A stretch of DNA of 63,999 nt, counting the filler, from Limisphaerales bacterium (lineage in GTDB: Bacteria > Verrucomicrobiota > Verrucomicrobiia > Limisphaerales > SIBE01): assembly GCA_044225505.1 (NCBI GenBank). It is 4 parts of 4 records of this genome, joined end to end, with 100 filler letters (N's around TTAATTAATTAA, not from the genome) between each part and the next. Parts side by side here need not be neighbours in the genome. Positions count along the whole stretch, not along the records: positions 35,592 to 52,986 come from JBGAIN010000170.1; 3 more parts are not named here. One strand, written 5' to 3'. Positions 13,125 through 56,561 of this stretch are shown here, one piece after another (within the stretch, counting starts at the first letter, position 1; each line of letters opens with the position of its first letter). The notes under the pieces are model-generated. The model was not told the DNA's origin. It did no database searches and was given only the letters and a program-made list of their open reading frames with translations. A program made the translations under genes and the position numbers.

Positions 13125-13249
13125 AATTCACTTTGTCATCCAGGACTCCCTGGATGTCTAGCGAATTCGACGGCCTCGGGCAGCGGTGACCCGCGCCCTT
13201 CACTCGCAACTTGGATTGTGTCGCTGCTCAGGTCTGGAAAGGCTGAGCT

Positions 13250-13927: not shown

Positions 13928-14048
13928 AATCGAAAATGCGCATTCTTGTGCCCTAACAAAAGAGAAAGTGCAATAGAATTGCCATCGGTTGAAGTTCTCG
14001 GGGCTGTTCCGTGGCGTCGAGAGGGCTCCGCTCGAGTTCGTCGGAACG

Positions 14049-14969: not shown

Positions 14970-15374
14970 GCCGTCAGTATTCCCAACCCCAGCCCCCCTG
15001 GCAAGACCTGCAACGTCGGAGGGGTTTCACGTCGATTGCATCGTTCGCCCGCGGCACAGGTCGTCCTATCTGATGTATAAACTGTTGATACGCAAAGAGC
15101 GCGTGGCCTGGTGACAAATGTCAGCAACCTGTGCGACATTTGCCGTCCCTGGCCATCCCGCATCTTCCGAGCGTACTGCCCAACGAGCAATTCGCTGCTG
15201 AACGCCGCCTCGTTGGAGGTTTCACCGACATTGGCAACAGGCCCCCGATCGGCAAACGTTTCCAGCCCGATTTTGGTTTGACGGCTTTGCCCACTTAGTT
15301 GATACCGAACTGTAGCCAGGGGACAAGTAGGCTGTTCTCTACGGGTCCTGAGCGGACTGAGTCGTTTTGTAGCG

Positions 15375-17809: not shown

Positions 17810-17909
17810 NNNNNNNNNNNNNNNNNNNNNNNNNNNNNNNNNNNNNNNNNNNNTTAATTAATTAANNNNNNNNNNNNNNNNNNNNNNNNNNNNNNNNNNN
17901 NNNNNNNNN
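17810..17909. other. Artificial contig linker
   Basis: N-run + TTAATTAATTAA (stops in six frames) + N-run, 100 nt. Confidence 0.98.
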
Positions 17910-35491: not shown

Positions 35492-35591
35492 NNNNNNNNN
35501 NNNNNNNNNNNNNNNNNNNNNNNNNNNNNNNNNNNTTAATTAATTAANNNNNNNNNNNNNNNNNNNNNNNNNNNNNNNNNNNNNNNNNNNN
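35492..35591. other. Artificial contig linker
   Basis: N-run + TTAATTAATTAA + N-run. Confidence 0.98.
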
Positions 35592-36270: not shown

Positions 36271-38607
36271 TTATGCGGAAGGCCCTTTCGGCAGAATCAA
36301 CTTGGCTTCGGAAACAAGATCCGCGAGGCGCTGAATCGCTTTGGCCGCCACTTCGATTTGCTCATTCACCGCCTCCCATTGGCGTTGCTCGATGGCTTCC
36401 CGGATGCCTGGCAGAGTTTTGACGCCGTACCCCGTATAGTATCCAGGGGCATAAACTAAATGTTTATACCAAGGGCGCCTGGGCAACCCGTCCGCGCTGG
36501 TCAAGGTCCGCTCCGCTCGCCGAAAAATGCTGTCGAGTTGTTGTCCCTGTTCCTTCGACAATCCTGACCCCTGCACCCTGGCGCGGCGAAACTGTTCCTG
36601 AAAGCTGTTTACTTCTGTCTGAAGCTTGTCCAAGGCATTGCGCAACGGAGCGAAGCTGAAATGGGGTACAGGCGGTTTTTCTGGCGGAATTGACGTTTTG
36701 ATCGCGCTGTCCGCTGCGAACTTGAGGGTCTTATCTCGGATGAGCTTGTTGTTTTGGGCAGTTTCCTCACGAAGATCGTCCGCGAGCTTGATGACCTCGT
36801 TGAGATAACGCGTCACCGTCTCGCTGAGATCCTGGAAATCAAACGGCAGCACGTCGGCATTCGCCAGGCGCAGGACAGCTCGGCCGGAGGTTTGTGCCAG
36901 CGCAATCCCATAGGAGAAGTCTGGATCTCCAAAACGGGTATAATAGTCAAACGAGTCGTAAATCGAATGGTACGATCCGCCGTCTCCTTCGCCGCCGTAG
37001 CGTATGTCCAAGCATGCGATCCCAAGGTGTTGCAGAAACGGGCTGTAATCCGACCCCGATCCCAGGGCACGGATCTTTAGAGCTTCGTCGCGAAGGGCTC
37101 GGCGTGCTTCGGGCGCAGCGGCCGCCAAGGCTTGGGCGCGAGCTCGGTCCGCCACGCTAATCCCGTGTTGGGGATCCATGACATCTCGAGCAATCTCTCC
37201 GACGAACGCTTCCAAGCTATGCGACCCGCCCACTCGCAGAAAACCGCGCTGATTGTCATCCCCATTAATGTAAGCCACGGCGTGCTCGCGGAGTTCATCC
37301 GCGTGAGTCTCGACCCATTCGGTCGAACCGAGCAATCCGGGTTCTTCCGCGTCCCATGCCGCGAAGATCAAGGTGCGTTTCGGCTTCCAACCGGCGCGAG
37401 CCAGGTCTCCAATCACGCGGGCTTCTTCCAGCAGCGCGACCAAACCGCTCACCGGATCGTCTGCACCGCAGACCCAGGCGTCATGGTGATTGCCGCGGAT
37501 AATCCACTGTTCTGGCCTTTCAGCCCCTGGCAGCCGAGCGATCACGTCCCGGGCGGTGACGGTTCGCCAATCAAACTCAACTTTTAAGTGGACCACCGCT
37601 GGGCCTGGCCCCATGTGGTAAGTCAATGGCAACGCTCCTCGCCACGATTCTGGGCAGGTTGGCCCTCCCAGAGCGCGGAGGAGTGGCAGGGCATCCCCAT
37701 AGGAAATAGGAAGGACCGGAATCTGCGTCAACGTGGTCACCTCGTTCAAAGGCAAGCGCTTGGCATCCTTCGTCGCGCCGATTCCCGGGGTCGCCGGGTC
37801 GCCAGGGCTGACCGGCAAGTCCGCGACTGACCCGCGCTCCACGCCATGCTCGTTTCTCCAAGCGCCTTTGGGATAAACGTCTCCTTCGTGATAGCCATCT
37901 TCCCGCGGGTCGGAGTAGATAATGCAGCCGATGGCTCCATGCTCAGCGGCCAGTTTCGGTTTGATCCCGCGCCAGGAACCCCCATACCGCGCAATAACGA
38001 TCTTTCCGCGCACGTCGATTCCGCGTTCCGACAGAATCTCGTAATCTCGCGGCAGCCCATAATTTACGTAGACCAATGCGCCGGTCACATCGCCGTCGAT
38101 CGAATAGGCATTGTAGCTCGGCAACTGTTCGTTGGTCAGTGCTGACGTGGCGTCTTCCGCCAACGGCGGTTCGACCAATCCAGCCGTGAACTTCTCGGGC
38201 GAAATCATTTCCAGAATTCGAACTTTTGGCGTCGGGAACAAAACTTCAAATTCCTCGATCTCCGTCTGGAAACCCCAAGTCTTGAATTGATCTGCAATGA
38301 ACTCCGCCACCTCTTTCCCGAACGGAGATCCAACATGGTGCGGATGTGCGGTAATTCGCTTCATCCAGGTTCGCAAGTTTTCCCGTTGAAGCAGTGCGTC
38401 GAAGCGCTTTTCCAACGCGAACTGGGCCGCCGCCGCGTCCGGACTGAAACCCTTCAGCGGTTTCTGGGGTGTGGGGGTGGATTGCGCGCTTAAATTCTGG
38501 ACGAAAAGGGGTGAGGAAATTGTGACCGCCAGCAAGTGGCCGAGGATCATTGCCGTCCAGCGGTGTCGTGTGCGGTTCATCGTCGTGGCGAGTTCATCGT
38601 TTGACAT
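36271..38607 (-). CDS. M28 glutamate carboxypeptidase II-like peptidase (PA + TfR dimerisation domains)
   Basis: YVNYG, GNHHDAW, GADDPVSG, WDAEEPGLLGSTEW, GSGSDY, YHSIYD, RPWYKHLVYAPG. Confidence 0.92.
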   Translation of the reverse strand: MSNDELATTMNRTRHRWTAMILGHLLAVTISSPLFVQNLSAQSTPTPQKPLKGFSPDAAAAQFALEKRFDALLQRENLRTWMKRITAHPHHVGSPFGKEVAEFIADQFKTWGFQTEIEEFEVLFPTPKVRILEMISPEKFTAGLVEPPLAEDATSALTNEQLPSYNAYSIDGDVTGALVYVNYGLPRDYEILSERGIDVRGKIVIARYGGSWRGIKPKLAAEHGAIGCIIYSDPREDGYHEGDVYPKGAWRNEHGVERGSVADLPVSPGDPATPGIGATKDAKRLPLNEVTTLTQIPVLPISYGDALPLLRALGGPTCPESWRGALPLTYHMGPGPAVVHLKVEFDWRTVTARDVIARLPGAERPEQWIIRGNHHDAWVCGADDPVSGLVALLEEARVIGDLARAGWKPKRTLIFAAWDAEEPGLLGSTEWVETHADELREHAVAYINGDDNQRGFLRVGGSHSLEAFVGEIARDVMDPQHGISVADRARAQALAAAAPEARRALRDEALKIRALGSGSDYSPFLQHLGIACLDIRYGGEGDGGSYHSIYDSFDYYTRFGDPDFSYGIALAQTSGRAVLRLANADVLPFDFQDLSETVTRYLNEVIKLADDLREETAQNNKLIRDKTLKFAADSAIKTSIPPEKPPVPHFSFAPLRNALDKLQTEVNSFQEQFRRARVQGSGLSKEQGQQLDSIFRRAERTLTSADGLPRRPWYKHLVYAPGYYTGYGVKTLPGIREAIEQRQWEAVNEQIEVAAKAIQRLADLVSEAKLILPKGPSA

Positions 38608-40697: not shown

Positions 40698-41456
40698 ATG
40701 ACGTGCCCAAGCGCTGACGAGAATTTGCCCAAGGCCTCCTCCGGTCTGAGGCCGGATTTTCCTACCACGCACTGGACTTTGGTGACACGAGTCCGTCAGG
40801 GCGGTGAGATACGCCGAGCGGCGTTGCAGGACCTATGCGGCCTTTACTGGTACCCAATCTACGCTTTCCTGCGGCGGCGTGGCTACTCGCAGCATGACGC
40901 CGAGGATTGCACCCAAGGCTTCTTTGTTAAGCTTCTCAACGACAACAGTCTTTCGGCCGCAGAGGAGAGCAAGGGGCGCTTGCGGACTTACCTGCTGCAA
41001 CACCTTAAGCGACACCTCGCCGATCAAAAGCGTTTCGATGGCGCACTCAAGCGTGGGGCTGGTCTGAAGGCAATTTCGTTCGAGGAAATGGGCGCCGAGG
41101 AGCGCTACGCTTGCGAGCCGCTGGAATTGCGTGATCCTGAACGGCTCTTCAGCAAGGCGTGGGCCAACGAATTGATTGCTGGTGTGCGTGAAAAATTGCG
41201 GGCCGATTTCGCAGACCCGAAGCGGCCGCACGCCTTTGAGATCCTGCTTCCCTTCTTGTTGCTCGATAACGACCCGCCGACCTATCGAGAAGTGGCTAAC
41301 AAGTTGCGCGCCACAGAAATCTCGGTGCGGCTGATGGTGCATCGCCTGCGCGCGAAATTCCGTGACCTGTTGCGGGATGAAGTGACCCGCACGATCGAAT
41401 CCCCCGGCGAAGTTGACGCCGAGATCGACTGGCTGAAGTCTGTCCTGTGCCAGTAG
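40698..41456 (+). CDS. ECF sigma-70 factor of the FPTTHW type (usually Ser/Thr-kinase-associated in PVC bacteria)
   Basis: FPTTHWTLV, YWYPIYAFLRRRG, DAEDCTQGFF, region 4 YREVA...VHRLR. Confidence 0.88.
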   Translation: MTCPSADENLPKASSGLRPDFPTTHWTLVTRVRQGGEIRRAALQDLCGLYWYPIYAFLRRRGYSQHDAEDCTQGFFVKLLNDNSLSAAEESKGRLRTYLLQHLKRHLADQKRFDGALKRGAGLKAISFEEMGAEERYACEPLELRDPERLFSKAWANELIAGVREKLRADFADPKRPHAFEILLPFLLLDNDPPTYREVANKLRATEISVRLMVHRLRAKFRDLLRDEVTRTIESPGEVDAEIDWLKSVLCQ

Positions 41457-41593
41457 TGAGGTCTTTGGCGCTCGCTCGTCGCAGCAATCCAGCATTGTTT
41501 TGAGGTGAACTTCCGACGCCGGGTTGCGCCGCTTCAAATTATTATCACTTTTTCTGAAACATTCGTTCCCGCTTTCCGAAAGGACGACGAGGA

Positions 41594-43489
41594 ATGACAA
41601 TCCTCTGCGCTTACTCAAAGTCGAGACCGAACCGACGGTCTTGGTGGTCGTATCTCCAGATCCTATTCGTGGCCGTTTGTTCCGTGCTTGCGGTGTCTGC
41701 GGCGGAGAACTCCCCCTCTGGATCAGCGAGCACTTCTTCTTCTTCTTCGAGCACCGCCGCCAGCTCCAATGGCCCTGCCGTCTCGCGACAGTCAGATGCG
41801 GTGCCAAGTCCTGGTTCAGGGGCAAGCGTTGGAGCGAGAGTTCCGCTTACTCGAAAGGATCGGGTGGCGAATCTCAACACGAACAGCGCAGCCCTTAAAG
41901 CGCTTCTAGAGTCACAAATTAGTTACGGGGAGGGGCTTCAGAAACGGGGTGCTACGATCCTGAAGGTAGTTCGTGATGCGAGGGAAAAGGAAAGCCGTGA
42001 ATCAGCGGCGGCTGCAGCCCCGCTGTACAAGATAGCGGCGGACGTGTTGGAGCCGATTATTGCGCAATATCCTGCGAACAGTTGGCGAATCGTGGCCGCC
42101 GAGTGTTACCGGAAAGCCAATAATCCAAACAAATTGGATGAGGCTCGCAAGCACCTGTTAGCGGTTCTCCAGGATCCATTTGTCGAGCCAAACGATGTCG
42201 CTGCCGCTGCGGCGGAATTGCGAAATCTGGCGCTGGTGCCCAACTACAAACTCGAGATTACAGCGCAGGATATTGCCGGGGTCGAGCGGGAAGTCGCCAA
42301 AATTTTTGCAGACCTCACCTCGGGCGGGACCCTCGATTTGAGCTCCCCGCAGCCCCTCCTTCGGGCGGGCGAGTTGTTCCTGAGTAATGGTGACACCGTC
42401 TGGGCGGCGCAGATGTTTCGTCGTTGTCTGACGATTAAGGCTAAACGTGGGGACCCGACCTTCAAGGAAGCAACAGCAAAACTGAAGGCTTTAAATCTGA
42501 ACCCGCTGGCACCACCGCTACGATACACCCGCAAAGTCGCTGAGGATTACCTCGTTGACCCACTCAGTACGAATGTGTCGACGTCCTACCTCGAGGAGGT
42601 GGCTCCAAAGATATCCGTTTGGGACAGAATCGAGAAGCGGATCCGAAGCACTCATTTTGCTGACACGAACAAGGTCTCGCGCGTGCAACCAGACGATATC
42701 GAGAAGTTCGAGAATGCCATGAGGCCGGTACTTGGGGCCGATTTTCAATGGTTCAAACATCTGTTTTTGGAGGGTTTCTGCTACATTCTAAAAAAGAACA
42801 CAGGGATCACCTATTCGAGTGCCAGGGATTTTTGCATCCAAAAATCGTTCACACCTCTCAATCTCGACCCGAACGATTTCCCGCCGCTGGTTAATGCCGC
42901 AACCCCCGGCGAGGCCGGCCTAGGTTTTGTTGGGTTCTATCAGCACCGAATGAGCGTCGAATATCTCAAGAGCGATGAAGCGCGGAAGCCGTATAAGCTT
43001 TCCGTCAATGGTCAAGGCTTACTTCTGCAAAACGGCGCCCTGTTCGACACCACCAACATGTCGACGGTCTTCTCTGGGAAAGGTTGGGCCATCTATGTCG
43101 TCACGCCGGACGGTGATATTTATGCCGCCACACACAAGTTGTCGGCTTTTCACCATTCCTCACTCCTGGCAGCCGCCGATGTCGCTGGTGCTGGCGAGTT
43201 GCAGGTCACGAAAGGCAAAATCGTCTCGATCAGCAACAAGAGCGGCCATTACTTGCCTGGCATGATACATCTCGTTCAGACCTTGGATGCGCTTAAGACG
43301 ATGAAAGTGGATACAACCGGGCTGACCAACGTCTTGCTCTTTGGTGAAGGACCGCGCAGTTCGGTGAAGTGGAATGGGGACGCAGCTTCATTTCGGAGTG
43401 CTTGGAACGATCTAGTTCAGTTCAAATCGACATTCAGCACGATGGGCTTCGTGAACGACCCGACGCCGGATGCATCCGATTATGATTGA
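41594..43489 (+). CDS. Exported protein: Ser-rich linker, TPR-like helices, C-terminal HHSS...SGHY putative enzymatic/toxin domain
   Basis: Signal peptide ending AVSA; C-terminal WAIYVV...FHHSSLLA...AGAGELQV..GKIVSISNKSGHYLP. Confidence 0.7.
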   Translation: MTILCAYSKSRPNRRSWWSYLQILFVAVCSVLAVSAAENSPSGSASTSSSSSSTAASSNGPAVSRQSDAVPSPGSGASVGARVPLTRKDRVANLNTNSAALKALLESQISYGEGLQKRGATILKVVRDAREKESRESAAAAAPLYKIAADVLEPIIAQYPANSWRIVAAECYRKANNPNKLDEARKHLLAVLQDPFVEPNDVAAAAAELRNLALVPNYKLEITAQDIAGVEREVAKIFADLTSGGTLDLSSPQPLLRAGELFLSNGDTVWAAQMFRRCLTIKAKRGDPTFKEATAKLKALNLNPLAPPLRYTRKVAEDYLVDPLSTNVSTSYLEEVAPKISVWDRIEKRIRSTHFADTNKVSRVQPDDIEKFENAMRPVLGADFQWFKHLFLEGFCYILKKNTGITYSSARDFCIQKSFTPLNLDPNDFPPLVNAATPGEAGLGFVGFYQHRMSVEYLKSDEARKPYKLSVNGQGLLLQNGALFDTTNMSTVFSGKGWAIYVVTPDGDIYAATHKLSAFHHSSLLAAADVAGAGELQVTKGKIVSISNKSGHYLPGMIHLVQTLDALKTMKVDTTGLTNVLLFGEGPRSSVKWNGDAASFRSAWNDLVQFKSTFSTMGFVNDPTPDASDYD

Positions 43490-43541
43490 GCACTGGTAAT
43501 TAATGCCACTCCGACCTCTTACCTTTCAATCCAATTATTAA

Positions 43542-45725
43542 GTGACCCCGTATCCTAGAATGAAACCAAACCGCAAAACCATGAAGACCCAAGCTCTCTC
43601 TGCTTGGATGGCGGCCCTGACCGTCCTGGTAGGCTTCGGCTCCATGCCCCAATCAGAAGCCACAGACGCATTGATTGAAGAGAAAACCCAGGCGGTCGAT
43701 TTGGCCAACAAGGCATTTCGGGACGCTGGACTGGAAACCATCTTCCAGTCCTTGGGCAGCCCCAATCAGTTCTACTATTTGCCTTCCACCATACGCTTTG
43801 CGAAGGATCAAAGGGGCGAACCGATGTGGTCTGTCATCAAATTCAATCTCGCTTACTCGGGCGACAATATCTACGACGAGAAAGGCCGCCTGGCTGTGGA
43901 CCCGGACGGTCGAGTTCTGCAAGGGGGCGTGTTCCAGGCGACTTTTGACATGGGCTTGGCTCCCGGACAACTGGACGCGATCAGGAAAAATGCCCTCAAG
44001 CCAGGCCAAAAGTTGGGGAGACTCCCTTTGGCGAGCGCCAATCTCTTTATTCAATATATCGATCCGGAAGATCCCAAGAAATCCGTGAATCTCGGCCCCG
44101 TCGCGGCGCCGCTGACGGGCGATCTCATTTCCGTAACCATTCCCTTAACCCGTTCGGCGCTCGATATTCTCAAACCCATCGCCGAGAACCCGAAGGGAAC
44201 TTCATCAGCTCCGTTTACGGTTTACATTGCGTTTAGCTACAAGGGCTACGATGACGAATACGCCGTAGAGGTCAAAGGATCTTCGTCGTCGATTATGGAT
44301 ACACAGCACGTCAAGACCGGCGTCGAAGGACAATACTGGTTTTTCAAAGGGAGCGCAGACTACGAGAATTTCAAGCAGAGCCTCATTCAGAGCAACGCCA
44401 TAACCGTGAAAGTTCTCGGCGACGCAGGCAATAACAAGGAAAAGATCGATGCCATTACCAGCAAGGTGGTGGACAAGGTCCTCGCCAATTTTATGGACTT
44501 TTCCACGGTCACGCCGGATCCAGGCCTCGCCGAAGGGAAGGGCGAGCCAAAAATGGAAGTCGTGAATCTTAATGAGGGGAAGAAGGTCAAGGATGCGCAA
44601 GGGCAAGATACAGAAAAAGACGCGACCGCACGCAATGCCGGTCTGGCCTTTTCCTTCTCCATGAAGCAGTCCAATAAATCCGAACGGAAGGACTTCACCT
44701 TCAACTGGAACACCCGGACGATGCTGACCAAGCTCGACTCCCGTTATGCCAATCTGGATTTTAGTTATCCGGAGAAGAGCAAGGGTCGCCACTATATCGA
44801 AGCCACCGCGAGCGACTGGAGCGTGGCCAGGCCAACCATCTCGGTCGCCCCGGATATCTTGCCATGGTTCAACATTTCGTCGGTGGAATGCAGCTATGCG
44901 GGCAAGCTTTTCCAAGCCACGCTGGTGGATCCAGGCGATCCGACCAAGGGTAAACTAGCCACTATGCCCGATTGGAAACAGGCTCCCGTGCAAGGCGGAA
45001 CGTTCAAGTACGGTCCGGTCAATATTCCTGCGATCACAGATCCCAGCGGCGCGCTGCTTCCCAGCGCCAAGACGGTGAATCGCAATACGGAGTTCACGAT
45101 CAAGTTTGCGCTCGCGGACAAGCCCCAACTCGAGGCGGGCGGGGTCGGAGGCCTCGACTCCAAGGATGTCCAAGTATCGCTGGACGCGGCGAGAACGCTC
45201 TTCAACAACTGGTACGGCAGCGGCCACAAGATCCTGCTCGATGCTTCCAAGATTAACGGAACGGCCGCTCTCATTTCCAGTGCCACGATGCCTCCGTTGC
45301 CGAAACGAGCGAGCTTTATGTTTCGCGTCACCGACTCCACCGGCACGGTCGACTGGTCGAAGAACGTCGCGGTCATTCCCAAGATATCGCAAAAGGTCAA
45401 TGCGTGGGTTCGCCAAGCGGTGAAGGCTAAGACCGATGCTCGAGATGGCGCGGAGAAATTCCTGGAACAGTTTGTCCCCGACACTTCCCGACCTCCCAAG
45501 GACTATACCGTCAGCCTGGCCAACTTGAAACCTGATCAAAACGACTTCTTTAAGGCCACGGACGACATTTTCGTGTTCCTCAATCCGGACGGTAGCGACA
45601 CGAAGTTTAACATCGACGTGACCGTGAACGCCGGGGCCAAGGTTGCCAAAGTAACCAAGCAAAACGCACTTCCCGGCGAGTTGGTGGTCATCGACGTCGG
45701 AGCGGCCCTGGCCAGCGCTAAATAA
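43542..45725 (+). CDS. Exported uncharacterised protein, 'FYYLP...QGG' paralogue 1 (start may be MKTQ at 43581)
   Basis: Signal peptide; NQFYYLPSTIRFAKD.RGEP...LQGGVFQATF; alternating beta-type segments. Confidence 0.75.
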   Translation: MTPYPRMKPNRKTMKTQALSAWMAALTVLVGFGSMPQSEATDALIEEKTQAVDLANKAFRDAGLETIFQSLGSPNQFYYLPSTIRFAKDQRGEPMWSVIKFNLAYSGDNIYDEKGRLAVDPDGRVLQGGVFQATFDMGLAPGQLDAIRKNALKPGQKLGRLPLASANLFIQYIDPEDPKKSVNLGPVAAPLTGDLISVTIPLTRSALDILKPIAENPKGTSSAPFTVYIAFSYKGYDDEYAVEVKGSSSSIMDTQHVKTGVEGQYWFFKGSADYENFKQSLIQSNAITVKVLGDAGNNKEKIDAITSKVVDKVLANFMDFSTVTPDPGLAEGKGEPKMEVVNLNEGKKVKDAQGQDTEKDATARNAGLAFSFSMKQSNKSERKDFTFNWNTRTMLTKLDSRYANLDFSYPEKSKGRHYIEATASDWSVARPTISVAPDILPWFNISSVECSYAGKLFQATLVDPGDPTKGKLATMPDWKQAPVQGGTFKYGPVNIPAITDPSGALLPSAKTVNRNTEFTIKFALADKPQLEAGGVGGLDSKDVQVSLDAARTLFNNWYGSGHKILLDASKINGTAALISSATMPPLPKRASFMFRVTDSTGTVDWSKNVAVIPKISQKVNAWVRQAVKAKTDARDGAEKFLEQFVPDTSRPPKDYTVSLANLKPDQNDFFKATDDIFVFLNPDGSDTKFNIDVTVNAGAKVAKVTKQNALPGELVVIDVGAALASAK

Positions 45726-45739
45726 CCCTCTGCCGCGCC

Positions 45740-47177
45740 GTGAGCATTGCGGCTACGTTGGGCCTGTTGGTCGTGGCATTGGGCGCTTCTGTTCCCGTGG
45801 CGCTGGCAGAAGGCGTCGAAGCGACGCTTTCCCCTGCCGCAGCCCTGTTCCGGGGCATTGACGGGACGGAGCAGTTTTACTTGCCCCAGCGCTTTCGGGT
45901 GCCTGGAGGCCCCACTCACGGCGTGGAATTGGGAGTCTATAGTTTGATTCACGAAAGAGATTTGGGAACGCAAGGTCTGGAGGAAGGATTGGTCCGCCAG
46001 GGTGGGTTTCTGGCCTTTCTCATCACGGCCTGCAAAGACGAGCCGCAAGCCCCGCAGAAGCCGGTGGCCATACGATGGAAAGCAGTGGATTGGTCCCTGG
46101 GATCCGCTGCCGGCGTCGTTCCCCAACGAGGCGACGATGCCTTTCCGGATTCGGTGGTGAACATCCCTTTACGGCGACAGGACGTCGATCTCTTGCGCGC
46201 ACAGGGCAAGCTCGATTCCGCTAGTCGCACGTTCCGCGTTAGAACCCATTTTGTTGTGCCTGATCATGAGCGCTTGGCTGATTCCCGGAGCAGCATCGCG
46301 ATCCAGGCGCATCCCCGGAAAGTGCGGGAGTCGTTGCGCGAATGGACCCGCAATAATCCTGCAATGCCATGCAAGGTCTACGATGTGACCGGGAGCCTGC
46401 GGCCAACGATGAAATCCCGGCAGTTCTGCTGAGCGACTCCAGCAAGTTCGTCCAGTTTTGTGTGGAACGTGAAGCGGTTACCATCGATCCAAACTTTCCA
46501 AAGCCCCTTTCCCCGCCACTAGCCGCGGGCATTTTTGCCGTCCTGCGCAACGCTTGGCTGGAACAATGCTCGGGCAAGTGGCGGACCAACTCGATGCCGT
46601 TCCTGTGGCGATCTGGCGGGCTGGACGAGCGTTGAACGAGGAGACGTTTTAGAGGGACATCTCGCGGGCTGGGTGGAGGTGGAACGTTATGCCTGGCGGG
46701 GATGTGAGCTTCCAAGAGGCGGCTTGGATAGAGCGAATCATCGCCGTGGATGGCTTTCAGAGAGAAACGAAACAGTGCCTCCACTTCACTTTCATCGGTG
46801 ATTGGGATGAGACCGGACTGGACCGCCTCGCTCTCGAGGCGCAACTCATCGATCCAATCTCGGAATATCAGGTCAAGAAGACCTTTAGCATCCCCCGGAT
46901 CGCTCCGCTCTCCTCGATGACCTTTGAAATGAAAGGCCGCTATTCCGATCAACTCCGCGTGCGATGGCGGGTCGCCCTGGGAATGTTCAAGACCGGCAAG
47001 GCCATTTCATCACCGAATCCGGAGGCTTGGAATGAGAGCCGGATTCCGAATTTTGACGCTTTCTTCCAACTTGGTCCTGCCGATGTTGCGGCGCTGCTTT
47101 CGTCGCAGACCGACCTGGACCGGAAAAAGCCGGCCGGAGCGCAGTCAAACTCCCTGGCGACGGAGGTGGCCCCATGA
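45740..47177 (+). pseudogene. Exported uncharacterised protein, paralogue 2; probably one gene broken by about three frameshifts in 46400-46700 (real or sequencing error)
   Basis: Signal peptide; EQFYLPQRFRV...RQGGFLAFLI; plausible coding passes through ORFs 45740, 46369, 46535 and 46689; stop overlaps the next ATG. Confidence 0.55.
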
Positions 47178-49149
47178 GAATCGCGCGCTGCCTCTTCCTG
47201 CTAGCGCAAGTGTCGCTCCTGGCCGTTGGGTGGAATTCTACCTCGGCTGCCGGCGTCCAGGCGCCCGTGTTGATCTTCCCCAACCCGCGGGATTTCTACA
47301 AAATCATCACGCCGGGCATGGACGTTTCGCCCAGTGGGCGTGCGTCTGCCCAAATCCGGCAACCGACGCAGCTGAGGGCCGTCGTCTTAGGCGGACAACG
47401 GGCGCTGCTTTGGCTCGAAACGTCGGTGTTCAAACCAGGGAATAGTGAACAAATGGGCTACCGGATGGCGGAACTCAGCTTCGTCAAACCCGAATGCGCG
47501 GCGCGGGAAGTGAGCTCCATGGCTGGGAACGGATTGCAGATCAAGCGCACCATCACCCCAAAGGCAGGCTTTCTCTCGTTCGCCTTGCTAGCCCCGGAGA
47601 AAACCGTCCGGGCAGGATTTGTGGAGCAAGACTCCAAATTCGTCGAGCTCACGAAAGATCCGCCATCGCCCCTCGCGGACGAGCCGAGAGTTCGCGAGGG
47701 GCCAAAGGACCGGCGGATTCAGCTCCTCCCGATCGCGGCCTCCGGCGATGCGGGACGGAAGGGACCGGAATTGTTTCAGCAGACAATCTCCCTGCGCAGC
47801 ACTTCGGACGGGCAGGGAATCGATTTTGTGGGCGAGTTCACGCTGGCGTTGGGCCAATATGAGATGAAGCTGGAAAAGAGTGTCGCTCTCTCCGAATTGG
47901 GAACCACTGCGGATGGCGGATCGTTGGCCGCCCGAATTAGCAAGTGGCTTGACGCGGCCGCGGCCACCTGGCTTGAAGATCCGCGGTCCTCGACAATGGG
48001 GAAGCGGTGAAGATCCGACGGTCCTCGACAATGGGAAGGTGTGCGCGCTCCTGGATCGCATTTGGCGGTCGACTTCGCTCCAAATTGTTGGCTGGCCGAT
48101 CGACAGAGTATGATTTCGGGTCGCGCGACTTTCTTGCGGCCTCCCGCATCCTTGGGCATTTGATGCTGGCCGAAAGGATCGCTGATCAGCTGGGAAAGAA
48201 TGGCGGTGAGTTGGGGATTGCCGAGAAAGAAGGCTTAGTGACCGCTATTAGGAACGCGCGCGCGCGACTCGAAGAGCTCGTCTTCCGCCTTCCCGTGAAG
48301 GTGGGTGATGACGACTGGATCGTCTTTTACAAGCCTGACAAAAGGAAGGCGCGCCTCTTCCCGGACGCGGTGCGCTGGACGTCCGCGGCCGCAACGGATG
48401 GGAGCGATCTCAGCGCTGGTAAAGCGCTGCAATTCAAAGTGCCGAATCGTGACCTCGTCTTTCTCATGACGGTCCAGGCGACGCCCTCTTTCACGCTTGG
48501 GGTCGAAAAGATTCCTGGTTTGCAGAAAGAGCTGGCGGACAGGTACCAGGATGAAGGACTCAGGACAGTGCGGCTGGAGACGGGCATTCCCGATGAGTTT
48601 ACGGCGACCCTGGCGCTCGGCGCCGAGGATAGGCAAGGGCTCTCCTCACTCGCGGTGAGTCTCTGCAAACGAGATGCACGAAACCGGCTCCTCCTAAAAC
48701 TGACTTCGAGGGAGTCCGAGGCCCTTTCCTTGCTGTCGCTTTTCCTGGGGGCCAAGGGCAAGGGACTGCCGCTTGACCTCAATGTTGATCAGTTCTTCAT
48801 CGGCCGATCTCATGAAACAGCGGGTGCGATCATTCAGGGGAAGGTCGCAGTGCAGGACTTTCAAATCGTCGAAGCCCGGGATCAAAGGATTCCCGTCACG
48901 GTTTGGGTCGATGCTCCGGTGTTTGTTGGGGCAAAATCGGCGCGAGTCACCGTCCCTTTTCGTTATCCCGGCGAGACGGCCACTTATTCCACGACGATCG
49001 ACCAGAGTGCCGGCTCCGGCCTGGTCGAACTTCCCTTGAAAACCGTCAACGGCGAAACGGTCTTGGACATCGAATATCAATCGCCGGTGAATCAAGCTTG
49101 GATCCTTCGCGAGCGGGGTGTGGAGGGGCTGGTCCTGGTCGATAAATGA
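47174..49149 (+). CDS. Exported uncharacterised protein; ORFs 47174-48010 and 48007-49149 are probably one gene split by a 34-bp tandem duplication
   Basis: Signal peptide only on the first ORF; both ORFs encode RSSTMG from the duplicated DNA at 47974-48038. Confidence 0.6.
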
Positions 49150-49203
49150 CATTCTCCCTTCTCTCCCAATCCCGTCTAGCTGTGCACTTAATCTCATAAT
49201 CCT

Positions 49204-51114
49204 ATGAACGAACCATCCCTTGCAATCGTGCGTTGGACTCGAGTTCCAGCGCTGGCCCTATGCTGCCTGCTGCTGATGCTCGCAGTTGGCGCCCATGCGG
49301 AACCGATTCCGGCGCCAAACGAAGTGTGCCACCGCGAATTGAGTTACCTCAAAACCCATGCCTCCCTGCTACTGCAAGAAGCCGAACAACTGGATCAGAC
49401 AGCCAAGGATATCCAGAAAGCTAACGCTGCGGCGGACAGCGCCAAGGCGCTGGTTGCCGCCACCGACAAATTGGTTGGTAATGTGAAGCTGGAGGCGAAC
49501 ACTCTGGTTCGGCAAGTGACCGATCTCGAACGGAGCCTCGTCGCGGCGGAACCTAAGGAGGCGGCGGTGTTGAAGAAAGAAACAGACAAAACGACGGCCG
49601 AGATTCCGAGCCTTCTAATGAAGCTGAAGAAGCTCAGGACCAAAATCAACGACGAGAGGCCGACGATCCAAAGCTTGGTCAAAGCAGCCCTCAATAGCAG
49701 ATCGCCTGTCAAGCCGAGCGCCATTGTTTCAGAAGACATGGCCGCAACGACCAAACTCTTGAATCAATCCGCGGCTCTTGGCCTGCTCCTGGTTACGAAT
49801 AGGCTGGGAGGGGGTTCCTTTGGAACGGTTTATCGGGTGGTGTTCGCGAAAGAAACGGATCCGCCGGGCAAGCCTTTTGCCTTCAAGACGTTCAAAAACT
49901 CAGCAGAATTGGAGACAGAATTGGGGATCTACCAACGCATCGGGCCGCACAAGAATATTGCCGCTTCTTACGGAAAGCTGACTTTACCGGTGCCTTCGGC
50001 AGCGCAGTCTCAGAAAACTGATGGACTCGCGATGGAACTCTTCGGTCGTGGGGATGTGGAGACGTTGGCCAAGAAGATGGCAGATCAAGTTTCTGCTGGA
50101 GTGATTACAGTCGACGAAAAGTTGGATGCGATTCGCTTTATTTTTCTCGATATCCTGCAGGGTCTCGACGCCGTCCACAAAGCCGGGTTGATCGCCTGCG
50201 ACCTAAAAGAGTTGAACGCTATGATGGATGACAATTACGTCGTCAAGCTCATCGATATGGGGGCCGCCGTGGAACGCGGTCAGAAAGTAGTGAGTCAGAC
50301 TGCCCAATACGCGGATGCGATCAATCAGGCGAATGCGAACCCGGCGATAGACATGTGGAGTGCGGGTCAAATGCTCTACCGGATGGTTCAAGGCGACTTT
50401 TTCTACCTCGATACCACCAACAAGACTTGGGCCGCTGGACCCTATTTCGAAGCGCGATGGATCATTAGACAAAAGGATTGGGTAGAAAAGGCCAAGGTCG
50501 ATAAGGAGATTCGGGCTCTCAAAAAGTTATCTCCGCAAGATGTTGACGATATCAACGCCGCTTTGAATAAGATCGAACTAGCCGTTCCTTCGCCCGTTAA
50601 GGACGCTCCGGATCGGCAAAAAGCGATTGCGGATGCACTCACGGAGCGCGGCAATAAGATCCGAGAGTTGCTGGCGGCTTACCGAGGCAAGTATCCGGAC
50701 GACTTTGTTCTGGCTTATTTTGATTTCCAGAACGGTCTGTTGCATCCGGTCCAAGCGGAACGGTTGACTCCGTTCGAGGCGCTGCACCATCCCTTCTTAG
50801 TCGACTTTGCCGCTGCCCAACAAGATCCGGATGGCAGCTATAGGAAGATGCTCTTCCAAAAGATATTCGATGATGCGCCGGCGAAGGCCCTGGTTAACGA
50901 CCCGGCGCCTGCTCGCGACGCCTCGGCCAATAGGCCCGAATTGCGACGTGCCCCGGGACAGAAGAATCTCAGGCCTGAACCCGCCCCAGATGGTGCGCCG
51001 GCGAAGGCCCTGGTTAAGGACCCGGCGCCTGCTCGCGACGCCTCGACCAATAGGCCCGAATTGCGACGTGCCCCGGGACAGAAGATTCTCAAGCCCGAAC
51101 CCGCTCCAAAGTGA
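49204..51114 (+). CDS. Exported eukaryote-like Ser/Thr protein kinase with N-terminal coiled coil and C-terminal 40-aa repeats
   Basis: Signal peptide ending AHA; LGGGSFGTVY, AFKTF, HKNI, ACDLKELN, KLIDMG, DMWSAG, RLTPFEALHHPFL. Confidence 0.85.
   Translation: MNEPSLAIVRWTRVPALALCCLLLMLAVGAHAEPIPAPNEVCHRELSYLKTHASLLLQEAEQLDQTAKDIQKANAAADSAKALVAATDKLVGNVKLEANTLVRQVTDLERSLVAAEPKEAAVLKKETDKTTAEIPSLLMKLKKLRTKINDERPTIQSLVKAALNSRSPVKPSAIVSEDMAATTKLLNQSAALGLLLVTNRLGGGSFGTVYRVVFAKETDPPGKPFAFKTFKNSAELETELGIYQRIGPHKNIAASYGKLTLPVPSAAQSQKTDGLAMELFGRGDVETLAKKMADQVSAGVITVDEKLDAIRFIFLDILQGLDAVHKAGLIACDLKELNAMMDDNYVVKLIDMGAAVERGQKVVSQTAQYADAINQANANPAIDMWSAGQMLYRMVQGDFFYLDTTNKTWAAGPYFEARWIIRQKDWVEKAKVDKEIRALKKLSPQDVDDINAALNKIELAVPSPVKDAPDRQKAIADALTERGNKIRELLAAYRGKYPDDFVLAYFDFQNGLLHPVQAERLTPFEALHHPFLVDFAAAQQDPDGSYRKMLFQKIFDDAPAKALVNDPAPARDASANRPELRRAPGQKNLRPEPAPDGAPAKALVKDPAPARDASTNRPELRRAPGQKILKPEPAPK
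50869..51108 (+). repeat. Two near-identical 120-bp tandem repeats (in-frame, 40 aa)
   Basis: Units start at 50869 and 50989, encoding D.APAKALV.DPAPARDAS.NRPELRRAPGQK.L.PEPAP. Confidence 0.92.
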
Positions 51115-51160
51115 GGTAGAGTTCCGCGCTTCCTCATCTACAGCTCCGCCGATCAAAAAC

Positions 51161-52986
51161 ATGAAACTCTCCAGCTACTTTTCTCCCGACCCAGCACGAA
51201 TGGCTGCGGCCGCCATTGTCATTTTATCGGCACCTGGGCTCATGGCCCAGGACCTCAGCGAGGACTTGCTCGTCCAGACGCCGAAGTGGACCTTGCAACC
51301 GGCCCCGTTTTCCATGGCGGCTTCGGCCAGTGATTTTACCGCGGAAGAGCTCGACAATTCTCTCCATGCGGCGTCCCAAAGCCAGAGCTCGTTCTTCGAC
51401 ATCATGAACTTCAACTCGGCGTTGGCCAGCCTGGGCAAGGTGCTGGATGCGTCCCAGGTCAATCTGCGATGGGAGGGGGTTGCGCCCGATTATCTTCTCA
51501 TCAATCCGACGCTCTCCTTCGAGCCGGGGCCGCCTCGAAAGATCAAGTTGTCCGGGGAGATCTACAGCCGCGAACCGTTTTTTAAACTGACCAGCGTCAG
51601 CGCCTCCGGACCGCAAACAAAGGGACTGGACGCCGTCATGAAGGAGTTCTGGAAACAGATTGATCGACCCATGCGCGCCCTGCGACCGAAAGCCGGCGGC
51701 GGCATGATCCTGGACCAGGAAAACATTGTGTCGGACACCGTGGCGGAGGTGGCCGGGGCGATGGTCCTGGATGGCGATGGCAATATCCACCCCCTCTCTT
51801 TGAACTCCATCCGCAGCACCGTGCCGAAAGGGTCCTCCAGCCAGAACCGTCTGATCGCGCCTTACAACAGCGCTTCCCTCATGACCGCGCGATGGGGGCG
51901 CGGCGGCGTTTCCGTCGATGTGCTCAGCCTGGCGAACGATCCGCGAAATGGCAGTTCTAACACAACTTCCAACCAGCCTGGCGTTTACTCGGTCAAGCAA
52001 CAGCTCGGGATTCCCCGGACTCTGTTTGGCGAAGGCTTTAACAGTGACTTTGCCGCCCTGCAGGATGTGAGCTTTGTGGTGGCCGACGGCTACGAGAGCT
52101 ATCTGACCGCGTGTTACTTTTACCGTGGCGGAGATTCCGCTTCGGAGCGCAATGTCGTTTTCGTGAATTACAATCCGAGCGACGGCAAGATCACGGCCAA
52201 TAGTGCGGAGACGCGCCCGATTCTGCAGAGCTACGGCAGCACCGTCATTAAGGACAACAAGCTGTTGACGGATCCCGTGCGATTGGCGGACCGCCCCACC
52301 ACGCGGCTGGATCCGACGGGCAAATATTGGACCTTTTATAGCCCTGCGGCCGGGGGCCTGCTTGTTTTCAAGAATGCGTCCAGTCAACCGGGCAGTTTTT
52401 CCGCCGAACAACCGCGGAGCGAGAATGCCGGGTCTCCGGTCGCTTTCGCGCCGCTGTGCCAGTATCGACCTGAGGCTGGAGTCCGGATCGTCGAGCACGC
52501 GTTCACTCCGAACGGCCGCGCTCTGGTGTTAATTCTGGCGAAAACCTCGTCGACCGAGCAGGGCGGGGAGAGCCGCAAGGCAGTCCTGTGGGATTTTCGT
52601 GGAGACCATGGCGTTGTCGTGGGCGATCGGCAGACGGACGCCAGTCAGTTGTTCAACGGCGGCTATCCGACCACGCCGCGTTGTTTGGAACCCGTCAGCG
52701 AGAGTTCCGGGAACCGATCTTTCAAGAGCATTCGGTTCGGAGTGAGTGCTGCCAATGCCCCCGGGGGCATCTTGATCCTGGGCTGCAACAACGCGGAGTA
52801 TGAAGTCTGGAAGTTCGCGATCGCGGACGCCCCGCCGGCCAACCGCGACCAGAGCTCGATCCTCGTCCGGCGATATTTCGATGGCCGTTTCCCCGATGCC
52901 TACGCAGGCAAGGATGCCTGCCCCCTGCAAATTGAGCCCAGAGACAACCGGGTGAGAATCGGAGGGTTCAAGGCTGTCGAGACGCG
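51161..52986 (+). CDS. Large exported beta-rich protein, cut by the contig end
   Basis: ATG at 51161 after an A-rich leader; signal-like AAAAIVILSAPGLMA-QD; propeller-like motifs (DPTGKY, AFTPNGRAL, AVLWD). Confidence 0.65.
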
Positions 52987-53086
52987 NNNNNNNNNNNNNN
53001 NNNNNNNNNNNNNNNNNNNNNNNNNNNNNNTTAATTAATTAANNNNNNNNNNNNNNNNNNNNNNNNNNNNNNNNNNNNNNNNNNNN
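52987..53086. other. Artificial contig linker
   Basis: N-run + TTAATTAATTAA + N-run. Confidence 0.98.
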
Positions 53087-56000
53087 CAATTTTGGCCAGG
53101 GCGAAGTCCCCTCGAGCGTCGATCAATTTGTGGTCCTCCAGGCATTTGAACCAAAGGCTGGCAGAACGTCGCTCACCAATCGGCCGGACATCGCCAGTAT
53201 GGGAATCCTTCATAAGCGCGGTCGAAGCACCGGAGGATTGCCCAAAGCCAGTTTCTCACTGGAGACCCAAGACGAGTTTGGAGACGACCGCGACGTGGCG
53301 CTTGGGGGATTGCCCAGCGAGTCCGACTGGGTGCTATACGCGCCGAATTCATTTGACCCGGTGCTAATCCACAACCCCGTTGCTCATGCCCTCATGCGGC
53401 AAATGGGCCAGTACTCCCCGCGCACCCGGTTCGTCGAGGTTTATCTGCAAGACTCGGCCAATGGCCCTGGGACGATCAGCGCGGCCGAGTATAATGGTGT
53501 TTACGTGCTGGAAGAGAAGATCAAGATCAGCCCCAATCGCATCGCAATCGACAAGCTGCAACCGGAACATATCAAAGAGCCCCAGAGTACGGGCGGCTAC
53601 TTGATGAGCATCGATAGCGCCCCCTCTGGCACCCGGCCTTTCTTTGGCGCGGGCGCCAGCATCAATTATCTCGATCCAGACTACTCCGAGATCACGACGC
53701 CGCAGCGCGATCCGCAAGAGAAATATATCACCGGCTTTTTTGATGCATTTGGCCAAGCGCTCAACGGTCCCGACTGGACCGATCCCGCCAAAGGCTACGC
53801 GGCTTACCTGGATGTGCCCGCGGCGATCAATCATCACTTGCAAGGAGTTCTCACCTTTAACGTCGATGCTCTTCGCCTCAGCGGTTACTTTTACAAACCG
53901 CGCCAAGCCAAACTCGTAATGGGACCAGTCTGGGATTTCGACCGTACCCAAGGATCCTCCGACGGTCGCGACTTCAACCCTCGGGTCTGGCGTTCGACCG
54001 TTCCCGATTATGGCACAGACATGTTCAACTCCGACCCGATCTTCGACAATCCTTGGTACAGCAAATTATTTCGTGACCCAAATTTCTGGCAGAATTGGAT
54101 CGATCGCTATCAGGAACTCCGTCGCGACGTTCTCAGCCTCACCAACGTCTTCACCGTTATCGACACCTTTGCCGGCGAAGTCCGCCAGGCCCAACCCCGC
54201 GATGTGGCGCGCTGGCGCGGCTCAAGCGGGTCCGACACGTCGCCGCGCAGCGGCCGGCGCAGCTCGGGTCCGTTCGCTTACACGTTTCCCGGCACTTATC
54301 AGGGCGAAGTCGATTTCATGAAGATCTGGTATTCGAACCGACTGGACTTCCTCGACCATCAATTCGTGTTCCCGCCCCAACTGGATCGCGCGGGAGGTAA
54401 GTTCAGTGCCGGGACGCTCGTTTCGCTCACTGCCAACGAAGGCTCGACCATTTATTACACGTTGGACGGAACGGATCCCCGGCTGCCCAGCGGCGCGGTT
54501 TCTCCCGGCGCGCTTGCTTACGCCGGTCCCATTCGCATCGACGCCAATGCGCGGATTGTCGCGCGCGCACAAGATCTGGCGCATAGCAATCTGACCGGGG
54601 CCAACAAACCGCCCTTGTCCAGCACCTGGTCCGGACGCGCGGCCGCCACGTATGTGGTCCAAACGCCGCCTTTGGTCATCACGAAGATCATGTACGATCC
54701 TCCCGCTTCTTCTCCCACGGCCGCCGATGGCGGCCATTTCGAATACGTCGAGCTGAGGAATGTTGGCAGCACGCCCCTGAACCTCGCCGGTTTCCGGTTT
54801 ACGCACGGCATTGACTTCCAATTCCCGTCGCTCGCTCTGGCCGCGGGCGAGCGGGTCGTGGTCGTTGCTGACGCCGCCTCGTTTCGAAACCGTTACGGAA
54901 CCAACGCCTTGATCGCCGGCACCTATTCGGGACAACTCGAGAACGCCGGCGAGCGCCTCGCGCTGGAAGGCCCGCTCCAAGAACCGATCCTGGACTTTTC
55001 GTACGAGGACGACTGGGTTCCCGTCACACGAGGGCTCGGCTTTGCCTTGGTCATCGTCAATGACCAGGCACCGTTGAGTGCCTGGAGCAAGAAGAGTAGC
55101 TGGCGAGCCAGTAGCACTCCCCTTGGCTCGCCGGGGGCCGCTGATCCGCCCCCTCCGTCGTCTCCTAGGATTTTAGTCAATGAAATCACCAGCTTTACCT
55201 CCGCGCCCGGCGTTGATGCCATCGAACTGTTCAATGCCGACTCGGTCGAGGCCGATATCAGCGGCTGGTACCTGACAGACGACTTTAATACCCCATTTAA
55301 ATTCCGCGTGCCCCCTCGCACCATCCTCCCACCTGGCGCCTTCCGGGTCTTCACGGATACGGACTTCGCGTCGGGCGCGACCGGATTCCGTCTGAGCTCG
55401 GATGGCGACGAAGCCTACCTATTTGCCGCGAATGCCGCGACGAACCTCATCGGCTACGTTCACGGGCACAAGTTTGGAGCCGCAGATCTCGATGTCTCTT
55501 TCGGCCGTTACGTGACCAGCACGGGCGACGAGGATTTTGTTGCTCAAAAATCGACCACCCTCAGCGGCACCAACGCCGGTCCGCGCGTCGGGCCAATCGT
55601 CATTAACGAAATCATGTCGGCGCCCCTGGGCTTGGCCGGGTCCGTCGGCAACGCGCGCGGGGAGTTCATCGAATTGCTCAATATCACCGACCAGCCCGTC
55701 ATGCTAGGTGCCTCAACCACGACCGACGCCAGCTGGATCCTGCGAGGCGCCGTCCAGTTTTCGTTCCCACCCGCGTTCATCCTGCCCGCCAGCGGCTACG
55801 CCGTGGTCGTCGGTTTCGATCCGGTCGCCACGCCGTCCGAGTTGACCGCGTTCCGGGAGCAATACCAGATCGGGGCGGATGTCGTGATCCTGGGCCCTTG
55901 GTCCGGCCAATTGCAGAACTCCGGCGAAGCCATCCGGCTCTCCAAGTGGCACTCGGCGCAGGATCAGACCCTGGCGGGCCAAGAGGCGGAGATCCTGGTC

Positions 56001-56561
56001 GATCACGTCAAATATTCTGACGACGCTCCCTGGCCCACCGGCGCCAAAGCCACCGGACTGTCGTTGCAACGCCTCGTTAATAGCAGTTACGGCAATGATC
56101 CCATCAATTGGTGGGCCGCCGCTCCCACCCCCGGCCGCACCAATGCCGCACCCGAACCCGACAGCGATCACGACGGACTGCCCGATAGCTGGGAAACCAG
56201 CGCCGGTTTGGACCCGCAAGACGCGACGGGCGTGAATGGCGCGGATGGAGATCCAGACGGCGACGGGTTCACCAACCTCGAGGAATACGTGAGCGGCACG
56301 GACCCTCGCGCGGCGGGCAGCCATCTCACCATCGAGGCGATAACCTATTCGGGTCCCGAGCTCAAATTGCGCTTCTCCGCCGCCGCAGGCCGATCCTACT
56401 CCGTCCTCGCGCGCGCTTCCATGGGCACAGGCGCATGGACCAAGAAGCTTACGATTCCAGCCGGAGGGTCCGCGCGGGAAGTCGAGATCAGCCTGGGCGT
56501 TCCAGACACGGAGGACTTCCCGCAGCAGTTCTACCAGGTGGTCACACCGGCGCAACCGTAG
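53087..56561 (+). CDS. CotH kinase + Fn3-associated + three lamin-tail domains + Asp-rich repeat surface protein (5' truncated)
   Basis: ESDWVL, YNGVYVLEEKIK, MGPVWDFD; IYYTLDGTDP; ITKIMY/VNEI/INEIM LTD starts; DSDHDGLPD.WE; C-terminal QQFYQV. Confidence 0.88.

Follow-up and report, generated by a model that had tools for sequence, protein, structure and literature searches.

A Limisphaerales operon for six proteins with predicted Sec-type signal peptides, two of them putative toxin-type enzymes, downstream of an orphan ECF-like sigma factor gene

What is the function of an operon whose six products all appear to be exported, when two of them carry domains that would be expected to act in a cytosol? 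This question is raised by a gene cluster of a Limisphaerales bacterium, located at positions 40698-52986 of the 63,999-base stretch of DNA analysed here (the window). The cluster begins with a gene for an extracytoplasmic function (ECF)-like sigma factor, followed by six co-oriented open reading frames (ORFs) starting at 41594, 43542, 45740, 47174, 49204 and 51161 (genes 1 to 6). We conclude that the locus is real and unusual, and that it is closest to the signal-peptide-leader polymorphic toxins and to the cargo of toxin complex (Tc) toxins, in a new operon context. Judged from their sequences, two of the six products are probably toxin-type enzymes, namely that of gene 1 with its HHSS/SGHY domain and that of gene 5, a STE20-like Ser/Thr kinase. 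The reading that we favour, and to which we would give about an even chance, is that the cluster encodes an accessory, lineage-restricted set of toxin-type enzymes, exported by Sec and controlled by the sigma factor, together with four orphan partners.

The arrangement of the genes, their strand and their spacing confirm the original prediction of an ECF sigma gene followed by six closely spaced genes. All of them lie on one strand, and the successive gaps from the sigma gene through gene 6 are 137, 52, 14, -4, 54 and 46 bp. Terminator-like sites occurred near the shuffled expectation and all within genes, none of them standing out between the genes of the cluster. Each of the six N-termini, as read from the translation, has a short, mostly basic head followed by a hydrophobic stretch, and several have Ala-x-Ala-type sites. 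The maximum 12-residue Kyte-Doolittle mean is 2.06-3.12 for the six proteins versus 1.03 for the sigma factor, in agreement with the predicted Sec-type signal peptide on each of them; these calls are made from hydropathy and from reading the N-termini. With such signal peptides, the six products would leave the cytoplasm. No component of a type III or type VI secretion system, an extracellular contractile injection system (eCIS), a Tc toxin or an Rhs system had been recognized in the cluster, and this was borne out by Pfam, in which no match to such a component was found. The TcA, TcB (SpvB, TcdB_midN) and TcC (RHS) families were matched by none of the nine cluster ORFs at E<=0.01. The two enzyme genes also lack a small immunity gene downstream, as had been proposed, since the room after gene 1 (52 bp) and gene 5 (46 bp) is too short for a small gene.

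Gene 1 (41594-43489, +) encodes 631 aa with a signal peptide (N-terminal hydrophobicity 3.08), a Ser-rich linker, a helical TPR-like region and a C-terminal HHSS...AGAGE...SGHYxP domain. It had no match in Pfam, NCBIfam or PADLOC. Residues 330-631 retrieved 64 proteins among 5.8 billion at E<=1e-3. Common to these 64 homologues is a domain of about 130 residues, in which the HH-S, G-E and G-H-Y positions are invariant and the HHSS...SGHY motifs of gene 1 are unchanged across the alignment. In gene 1 this conserved domain of toxin-cargo type occupies about residues 455-590 (42956-43363, +). In three genomes of the order, the domain forms the C-terminal tip of proteins composed of SpvB, TcdB_toxin_midN, FG-GAP and RHS parts (1743, 2455 and 2349 aa). 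The genes of these TcB-TcC-like fusions lie at 4917-10148 (-) of locus L024, 2851-10218 (+) of L025 and 6237-13286 (-) of L026, and the domain lies 110-135 residues behind DPxG[LM], the motif closing the RHS shell. According to the excerpts of PMC7861908, the C-terminal part of TcC is a toxic domain injected into host cells, Tc cargo is typically directed at eukaryotic cells, and PKc_like kinase cargo also exists for TcC. The gene-1 domain was further found fused to eCIS_core (PF13699) in two proteins (115.8 and 65.3 bits), with a WXG100-like leader (WXG100_2) in two actinobacterial proteins (20.4 and 23.9 bits, below the cut-off of 27), and elsewhere also behind TPR repeats. In another genome a stand-alone protein of 453 aa with this domain is encoded directly downstream of a 508-aa Anthrax_toxA (PF03497) protein (L027, G312:C134, 5331-8294, -).

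A C-terminal domain common to unrelated N-terminal scaffolds, here a signal peptide with a TPR-like region, SpvB/TcdB/RHS, eCIS_core and a sub-threshold WXG100-like leader, is characteristic of polymorphic toxins. An immunity gene directly downstream, also characteristic of them, was not found, as 52 bp separate gene 1 from the gene for a 727-aa exported protein. The Tc-cargo position in three proteins, the fusion to eCIS_core in two and the sub-threshold WXG100-like context in two agree with the proposal that gene 1 carries a domain fit for a foreign cytosol. They suggest that the domain behaves as a polymorphic-toxin cargo module, which in gene 1 is preceded by a Sec leader and a helical stretch. 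The HHSS and SGHY motifs were not found in the excerpted text of a survey of polymorphic toxins (PMC3482391). The AlphaFold model of the domain had a predicted local distance difference test (pLDDT) score of 85.7. Foldseek found no PDB match for this model at E<=1e-3, and a search of the protein atlas returned unnamed clusters only. The sole fold lead is PHPT1, a Janus phosphohistidine phosphatase. Cry6Aa, which appeared at E 0.076 in a profile search of PDB sequences, was rejected as a chance match of coiled-coil type in variable N-terminal columns.

Gene 5 (49204-51114, +; 636 aa) encodes a signal peptide, a coiled-coil-like region, a Hanks-type kinase (49795-50799) and two 40-aa Pro-rich repeats. 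It matches Pkinase (PF00069) at 85.3 bits (cut-off 31.7) over residues 198-532, and its translation contains the motifs GGGSFGTV (G-loop), FAFK (AxK), CDLKELN, DMG and DMWSAG (DxWSxG). In the catalytic loop the Asp, Lys and Asn are kept, and the His-Arg of HRDLKxxN is replaced by Ala-Cys. The proposed Hanks-type kinase was thereby recovered with a complete Pkinase domain and intact catalytic residues, behind a signal peptide that is of the cleavable type (positive head, AHA-E site). Because a kinase needs ATP, the product of gene 5 would hardly be able to act in the periplasm. Its best solved relatives are eukaryotic STE20-group kinases (E about 1e-9). The best curated family is XopAU (NF041408), matched over residues 284-396 only at 49 bits against a cut-off of 450, and PADLOC returned generic kinase models only. 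The kinase also stands apart from the 60-odd others in its genome. The genome Pkinase scan gave it 85.7 bits, versus about 145-188 bits for those adjacent to sigma genes. By BLASTP it matched just one kinase of its own genome, weakly. A search of 400 further genomes of the order, in which three candidates were scored for each, found no relative at E<=1e-15. The Pro-rich repeats at the C-terminus of the kinase are encoded by a 120-bp tandem duplication (50869-51108, +; 2.0 copies, 94% matches).

It had also been proposed that the genes between the two enzymes share an N-terminal domain and constitute a paralogous core. This claim was not upheld. An all-against-all BLASTP of the cluster proteins gave nothing below E 0.2. 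Gene 3 matched the hidden Markov model (HMM) of the gene-2 family at E 0.024 among 9 sequences, which is not significant, and in hhalign it reached a probability of 20% (P 0.0011) over 66 columns at equivalent N-terminal positions. The same hhalign comparison gave nothing for genes 4 (47174) and 6 (51161). The shared domain is reduced to a weak resemblance between the sequences of genes 2 and 3.

Gene 2 itself (43542-45725, +) encodes a beta-rich exported protein of 727 aa that belongs to a rare, unnamed family. A profile seeded by gene 2 (N-terminal 300-440 residues) retrieved 26 proteins at E<=1e-3 among 1.84 billion representatives. Independent family members matched the profile at E 4e-71 to 3e-4, and proteins of two genomes outside the alignment (G052 and G282) at 3.7e-43 to 1e-16. 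Gene 2 is the only protein in its own genome that matches the family HMM, and the family occurs in 4 of the 401 genomes sampled from the order, this one among them. The two close homologues show 68% and 67% identity, and one of them is FEM03_00515 of Phragmitibacter flavus, which we take to be a cultured species.

In line with the original prediction, a survey of the neighbourhoods of gene-2 relatives found them in tandem arrays whose neighbouring enzymes vary (an S8 subtilase, a C14 caspase-like protease and an HExxH protein). In G286 (L003, contig C3, 2399-18282), an ECF sigma gene different from that of the cluster is followed about 6 kb downstream by four tandem gene-2 paralogues with signal peptides (9239-16848), flanked by exported proteins of 722 and 414 aa and by a 468-aa exported HEHLH (HExxH-motif) protein. 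In G052 (L013, contig C23, 1792-19983, -), three tandem paralogues without signal peptides (9665-17389) adjoin a fourth copy with a broken frame (1792-4286) and an S8 subtilase of 1169 aa (4330-7842), for which PADLOC gives a match to its model 'subtilase'. In G282 (L014, contig C104, 973-8480), an 838-aa family protein without signal peptide precedes a 1066-aa unknown protein and a 557-aa Peptidase_C14 protein (PADLOC 'caspase'). The 'subtilase' and 'caspase' models presumably belong to gasdermin systems. The cytoplasmic gene-2 relatives resemble gasdermin-protease cell-death systems in that they adjoin S8 and C14 proteases. However, the proteins of the gene-2 family are 600-900 aa long and have no gasdermin match, and the member in this cluster is exported. 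Neither gene 2 nor its relatives matched a PADLOC defence family or, in Pfam or PADLOC, a gasdermin.

All language-model neighbours of gene 2 are CDC/MACPF clusters, with a weak score of 0.83. This candidate assignment gained no support, as there was no Pfam match and no such chain in three fold searches. These searches were made with a model of the 727 residues that reaches a pLDDT of only 69, and their outcome does not establish a new fold. The model resembles the Ig/FN3 sandwiches of adhesins, pilins and S-layer proteins. When residues 40-727 of gene 2 were modelled as a complex with residues 90-335 of gene 1, its helical region, the score was 0.00, which gives no answer either way. No pore or translocon fold was recognized in the cluster.

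The six-gene model appears to stand in contigs of four other sequencing runs but not in this assembly, in which genes 3 and 4 are frame-broken. Gene 3 (45740-47177, +) is split here into two pieces that lie in different frames, 45740-46432 (230 aa, with the signal peptide) and 46689-47177 (162 aa). Gene 4 (47174-49149, +) is split into 47174-48010 (278 aa, with the signal peptide) and 48007-49149 (380 aa), which overlap by 4 bp. The frames were compared with Logan contigs of four runs from three studies (bioreactor and activated-sludge metagenomes, one run being unlabelled). In these runs gene 3 shows four 1-base indel differences at 46398-46698, three of them in all four runs and the fourth in three, the remaining contig ending there. 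The intermediate frames are free of stops, and frame arithmetic indicates that gene 3 is probably a single ORF of about 479 codons (45740-47177) in the other runs. In gene 4, segments within 47968-48102 are replaced, with joints 47967/8->48007 and 48049/50->48102. This segment is strain-variable, 38-39 bases being replaced by 4-5 and, in two runs, 51 bases by 95. Taken together, these changes shift the reading from the first frame into the second beyond 48102, and 48007-48050 contains no stops, the 95 replacement letters not having been seen; gene 4 is probably one ORF in those runs too. The broken copy of genes 3 and 4 reflects either an error of the assembly or an allele in decay. Since the frames appear to be read through in the other runs, the six-gene model holds for the population.

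Genes 4 and 6 had no family match in Pfam, NCBIfam or PADLOC. Gene 6 (51161-52986, +) is an exported orphan that is cut by the contig end, with 608 aa present and about 19 aa missing. None of the remaining contigs of the genome carries its missing end or overlaps the contig end. The proposal that the cluster continues past this point found no support, as gene 6 is short by only about 19 residues and there is no sign of more. Its homologues are only three. One shows 99% identity, one (44%) lies on a 9,872-bp contig that also holds a gene-1 homologue (42%), and one (39%) comes from a metagenome-assembled genome of Isosphaeraceae.

The sigma factor (40698-41456, +; 252 aa) matches its families below threshold: Sigma70_r2 at 21.6 bits (cut-off 24), without a region-4 match in Pfam, and TIGR02937 at 29.7 bits (cut-off 42.9) over residues 42-223. 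It has 37 paralogues in its own genome at E<=1e-27 and thus belongs to a 38-member family. A Ser/Thr kinase gene lies within 1.5 kb downstream on the same strand in 29 of the 37 paralogues; two others lie where their contigs end, and no such gene follows the remaining six. In all, 73 Pkinase matches were counted in the genome, and the kinases paired with the paralogous sigma factors are about 1000-1300 aa long (for example C260:154001-155831 and C222:197846-196909). ECF groups 43, 59-62, 217, 267 and 283 are given as kinase-associated in the excerpted text of PMC7826278. The sigma family is like these kinase-controlled groups in that most of its members directly precede a kinase gene. The sigma factor of the cluster is unlike them in having no adjacent cytoplasmic kinase, the kinase nearby being exported and of another type. 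Judged by its position, the operon is most likely transcribed under the control of this upstream ECF-like sigma factor.

The genes of the cluster are sparsely distributed. Gene 2 was not found in 12 members of the taxonomic family, two of them of the same genus, and 400 genomes of the order yielded a single, weak match to it. The gene-1 domain is present in 8 of the 401 genomes and gene 5 in this genome only (1/401), and both were likewise not found in the nearest relatives searched. On the other hand, the linkage of genes 1 and 2 recurs at 43% and 67% identity in another order. P. flavus (Verrucomicrobiales) has gene-1 homologues (FEM03_00495 and FEM03_00500; TLD72589 and TLD72590) and a gene-2 homologue (TLD72593) within five consecutive genes, as read from accession and locus-tag order only. 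Together with the contig shared by the homologues of genes 1 and 6, this suggests that parts of the set travel together.

In the favoured reading, an envelope or environmental signal would lead the sigma factor to switch the operon on, and Sec would export the proteins. Release might then follow, for example through a secretin-dependent pathway, six secretin-domain matches having been found in the genome. The enzymes of genes 1 and 5 would act inside another cell, most likely a eukaryotic grazer, which we consider a likely target because no immunity gene is present. The products of genes 2, 3, 4 and 6 would be beta-rich orphans exported along with the enzymes, which they might bind, protect or deliver. 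Several observations weigh against this reading. The complete six-gene set was seen nowhere else, repeats being limited to the gene 1-gene 2 and gene 1-gene 6 linkages. No gene 6 homologue was found in P. flavus, and this genome is the only one of those sampled from the order to have both the gene-2 family and the gene-1 domain. No cluster protein matched a known toxin, pore-former or secretion component in Pfam, NCBIfam or PADLOC. The sigma factor is an orphan, with an operon for exported proteins in place of a kinase gene within 1.5 kb downstream. Its control of the operon is inferred from gene position only, and a scan for sigma-70-type promoters found 0 promoter-like sites. Release beyond the periplasm is likewise inferred, the signal peptides having been judged by hydropathy, and the choice of a target organism is conjecture. 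With two of its genes, 3 and 4, broken in frame, the locus may be decaying in this strain.

Other explanations have to be considered. Genes 2, 3, 4 and 6 might together form an extracellular hetero-oligomeric binding or pore device, so that the cluster would be a multi-component AB-type toxin by which the enzyme of gene 1 and the kinase of gene 5 enter a eukaryotic cell. The tight, partly overlapping operon is consistent with such a toxin, as are the linkage of genes 1 and 2 in P. flavus, the homologues of genes 1 and 6 on one 9.9-kb contig, the gene-2 relatives in tandem arrays of three to four paralogues beside variable enzymes, the CDC/MACPF neighbours of gene 2 (weak, 0.83) and the weak N-terminal likeness of genes 2 and 3. 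We nevertheless think it unlikely, given that there is no significant paralogy among the four genes, that some gene-2 relatives have no signal peptide and are cytoplasmic, and that the set is not conserved as a unit. As neither paralogy within the cluster nor a conserved six-gene set is supported, the AB-toxin mechanism is offered as a hypothesis. A quite different and somewhat less probable possibility is that no toxin is involved and that the cluster is a regulatory or envelope module. Gene 5 would then be the displaced partner kinase of the sigma factor, gene 1 a phosphohistidine-phosphatase-like counter-enzyme and the rest envelope proteins. The kinase gene downstream of 29 of the 37 paralogous sigma genes, the kinase-associated ECF groups listed in the excerpts of PMC7826278 and the PHPT1 lead are all in line with this. 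However, the cleavable-type signal peptide places the gene-5 kinase outside the cytoplasm, and its gene lies 7.7 kb downstream of the sigma gene rather than about 300 bp. A sigma-paired kinase used as query also fails to retrieve gene 5 at E<=1e-8, which agrees with its one weak match in its own genome, and the Tc and eCIS cargo contexts of the gene-1 domain would be unexpected for a housekeeping phosphatase.

It is also conceivable, though improbable in our view, that the cluster is an accessory island in partial decay whose exported or surface proteins are unrelated and without a joint function. Adhesin- or S-layer-like beta-sandwich proteins would then stand next to stray enzyme domains merely by chance or through shared regulation. 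Genes 3 and 4 are frame-broken in this assembly, the model of gene 2 resembles Ig/FN3 sandwiches of adhesins, pilins and S-layer proteins, and each gene has its own sparse distribution. Against such an island speak the apparently intact frames in the contigs of four other runs, the operon-like spacing with a 4-bp overlap, the gene 1-gene 2 linkage in another order (43% and 67% identity) and the low chance that two toxin-type domains would meet in one six-gene operon. The least probable of these explanations, which we consider very unlikely, is a locus for antibacterial competition whose exported enzymes hit neighbouring bacteria, for example via vesicles or after uptake. Leaders consisting of a signal peptide only ('T2SS') are a recognized class of polymorphic toxins in the excerpted text of PMC3482391, and in actinobacteria the gene-1 domain also occurs with WXG100-like leaders. 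Against this explanation, no immunity gene follows gene 1 or gene 5, the gene-5 kinase is of the eukaryotic STE20-like type, and Tc cargo is typically aimed at eukaryotic cells (PMC7861908, excerpts).

Among known systems, the 'T2SS' class of polymorphic toxins described by Zhang et al. (2012; PMC3482391, excerpts) is similar to gene 1 in its Sec leader, its non-catalytic middle and its C-terminal domain shuffled among unrelated scaffolds. Gene 1 differs in having no immunity gene, a domain outside the named Pfam toxin families and an operon with five more exported proteins. The likeness to Tc (ABC) toxins, as they are described in the excerpts of PMC7861908, lies in the exact cargo position of the gene-1 domain in three TcB-TcC-like fusions and in the known PKc_like cargo. 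The cluster, however, has no SpvB, TcdB, RHS or TcA, and its enzymes bear their own signal peptides and are not enclosed in a cocoon. Gene 5 shares the Hanks fold, the STE20-like best matches and a partial match of 49 bits with XopAU-type effector kinases (NF041408), but it falls far below the cut-off of 450, it has a Sec leader instead of a type III or type IV secretion signal, and it belongs to an environmental organism without known host. Sec-exported AB toxins of the cholera and pertussis types combine cytosol-acting enzymes and non-enzymatic partners in one operon and are exported by Sec. Unlike them, the cluster shows no B-subunit fold, no pentamer-type protein and no likeness in sequence or fold.

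The source genome comprises 9.04 Mb in 342 contigs and is 95% complete, and the organism turns up in sludge and bioreactor samples. The window consists of four contigs (C275, C276, C277 and C342) placed end to end and is not one molecule. Its artificial joints, N runs around ttaattaattaa, lie at 17810-17909, 35492-35591 and 52987-53086, and adjacency across them is not genomic. The cluster occupies the 3' end of the 17.4-kb contig C277 (35592-52986 of the window), of which position 52986 is the true end. In base composition the cluster was not distinct from its surroundings, and Rfam gave zero matches on this contig. Long antisense ORFs (e.g. 40833-41825 and 51224-52498) were put down to the G+C richness of the coding strand. 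The genes upstream on C277 are ordinary, coding for an M28/transferrin-receptor-like peptidase, a thioesterase, a NUDIX hydrolase and a DUF4202 protein. The first of these is a 778-aa protein with PA, Peptidase_M28 and transferrin-receptor-like dimerisation domains (36271-38607, -). Near the first bases of C342 lies an ORF for a 1143-aa protein with a CotH kinase domain, a chitobiase C-terminal/Fn3-associated domain and three lamin-tail domains (LTD; 53130-56561, +). This is a second secreted-kinase-type protein, unlinked to the cluster. The CotH-LTD gene was rejected as a member of the cluster, since it sits on a different contig.

The HHSS/SGHY domain would be a new toxin-cargo family, apparently traded among scaffolds of the Tc, eCIS, WXG100 and Sec types in several phyla. 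Its activity, once found, would add a toxin mechanism. If the PHPT1 lead is true, it would be the first toxin of the phosphohistidine-phosphatase type, none having been found in the literature among the matches listed. The gene-2 family is a second unknown family, with exported forms and cytoplasmic, protease-linked forms. Annotators should note that the broken frames of genes 3 and 4 are peculiar to this assembly. How would a Sec-exported Hanks kinase reach its target when its operon encodes no injector? One answer, which at present seems quite improbable, is an undescribed Sec-dependent, injector-free toxin system, in which beta-sandwich proteins of the gene-2 family, as membrane-acting carriers of a new kind, would together with genes 3, 4 and 6 bring two enzymes into eukaryotic grazers, namely the new cargo domain, perhaps a PHPT1-like phosphohistidine/phospholysine phosphatase, and a STE20-like kinase, with the orphan sigma factor as the switch. 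If this is true, that toxin would rewire host phospho-signalling from both sides.

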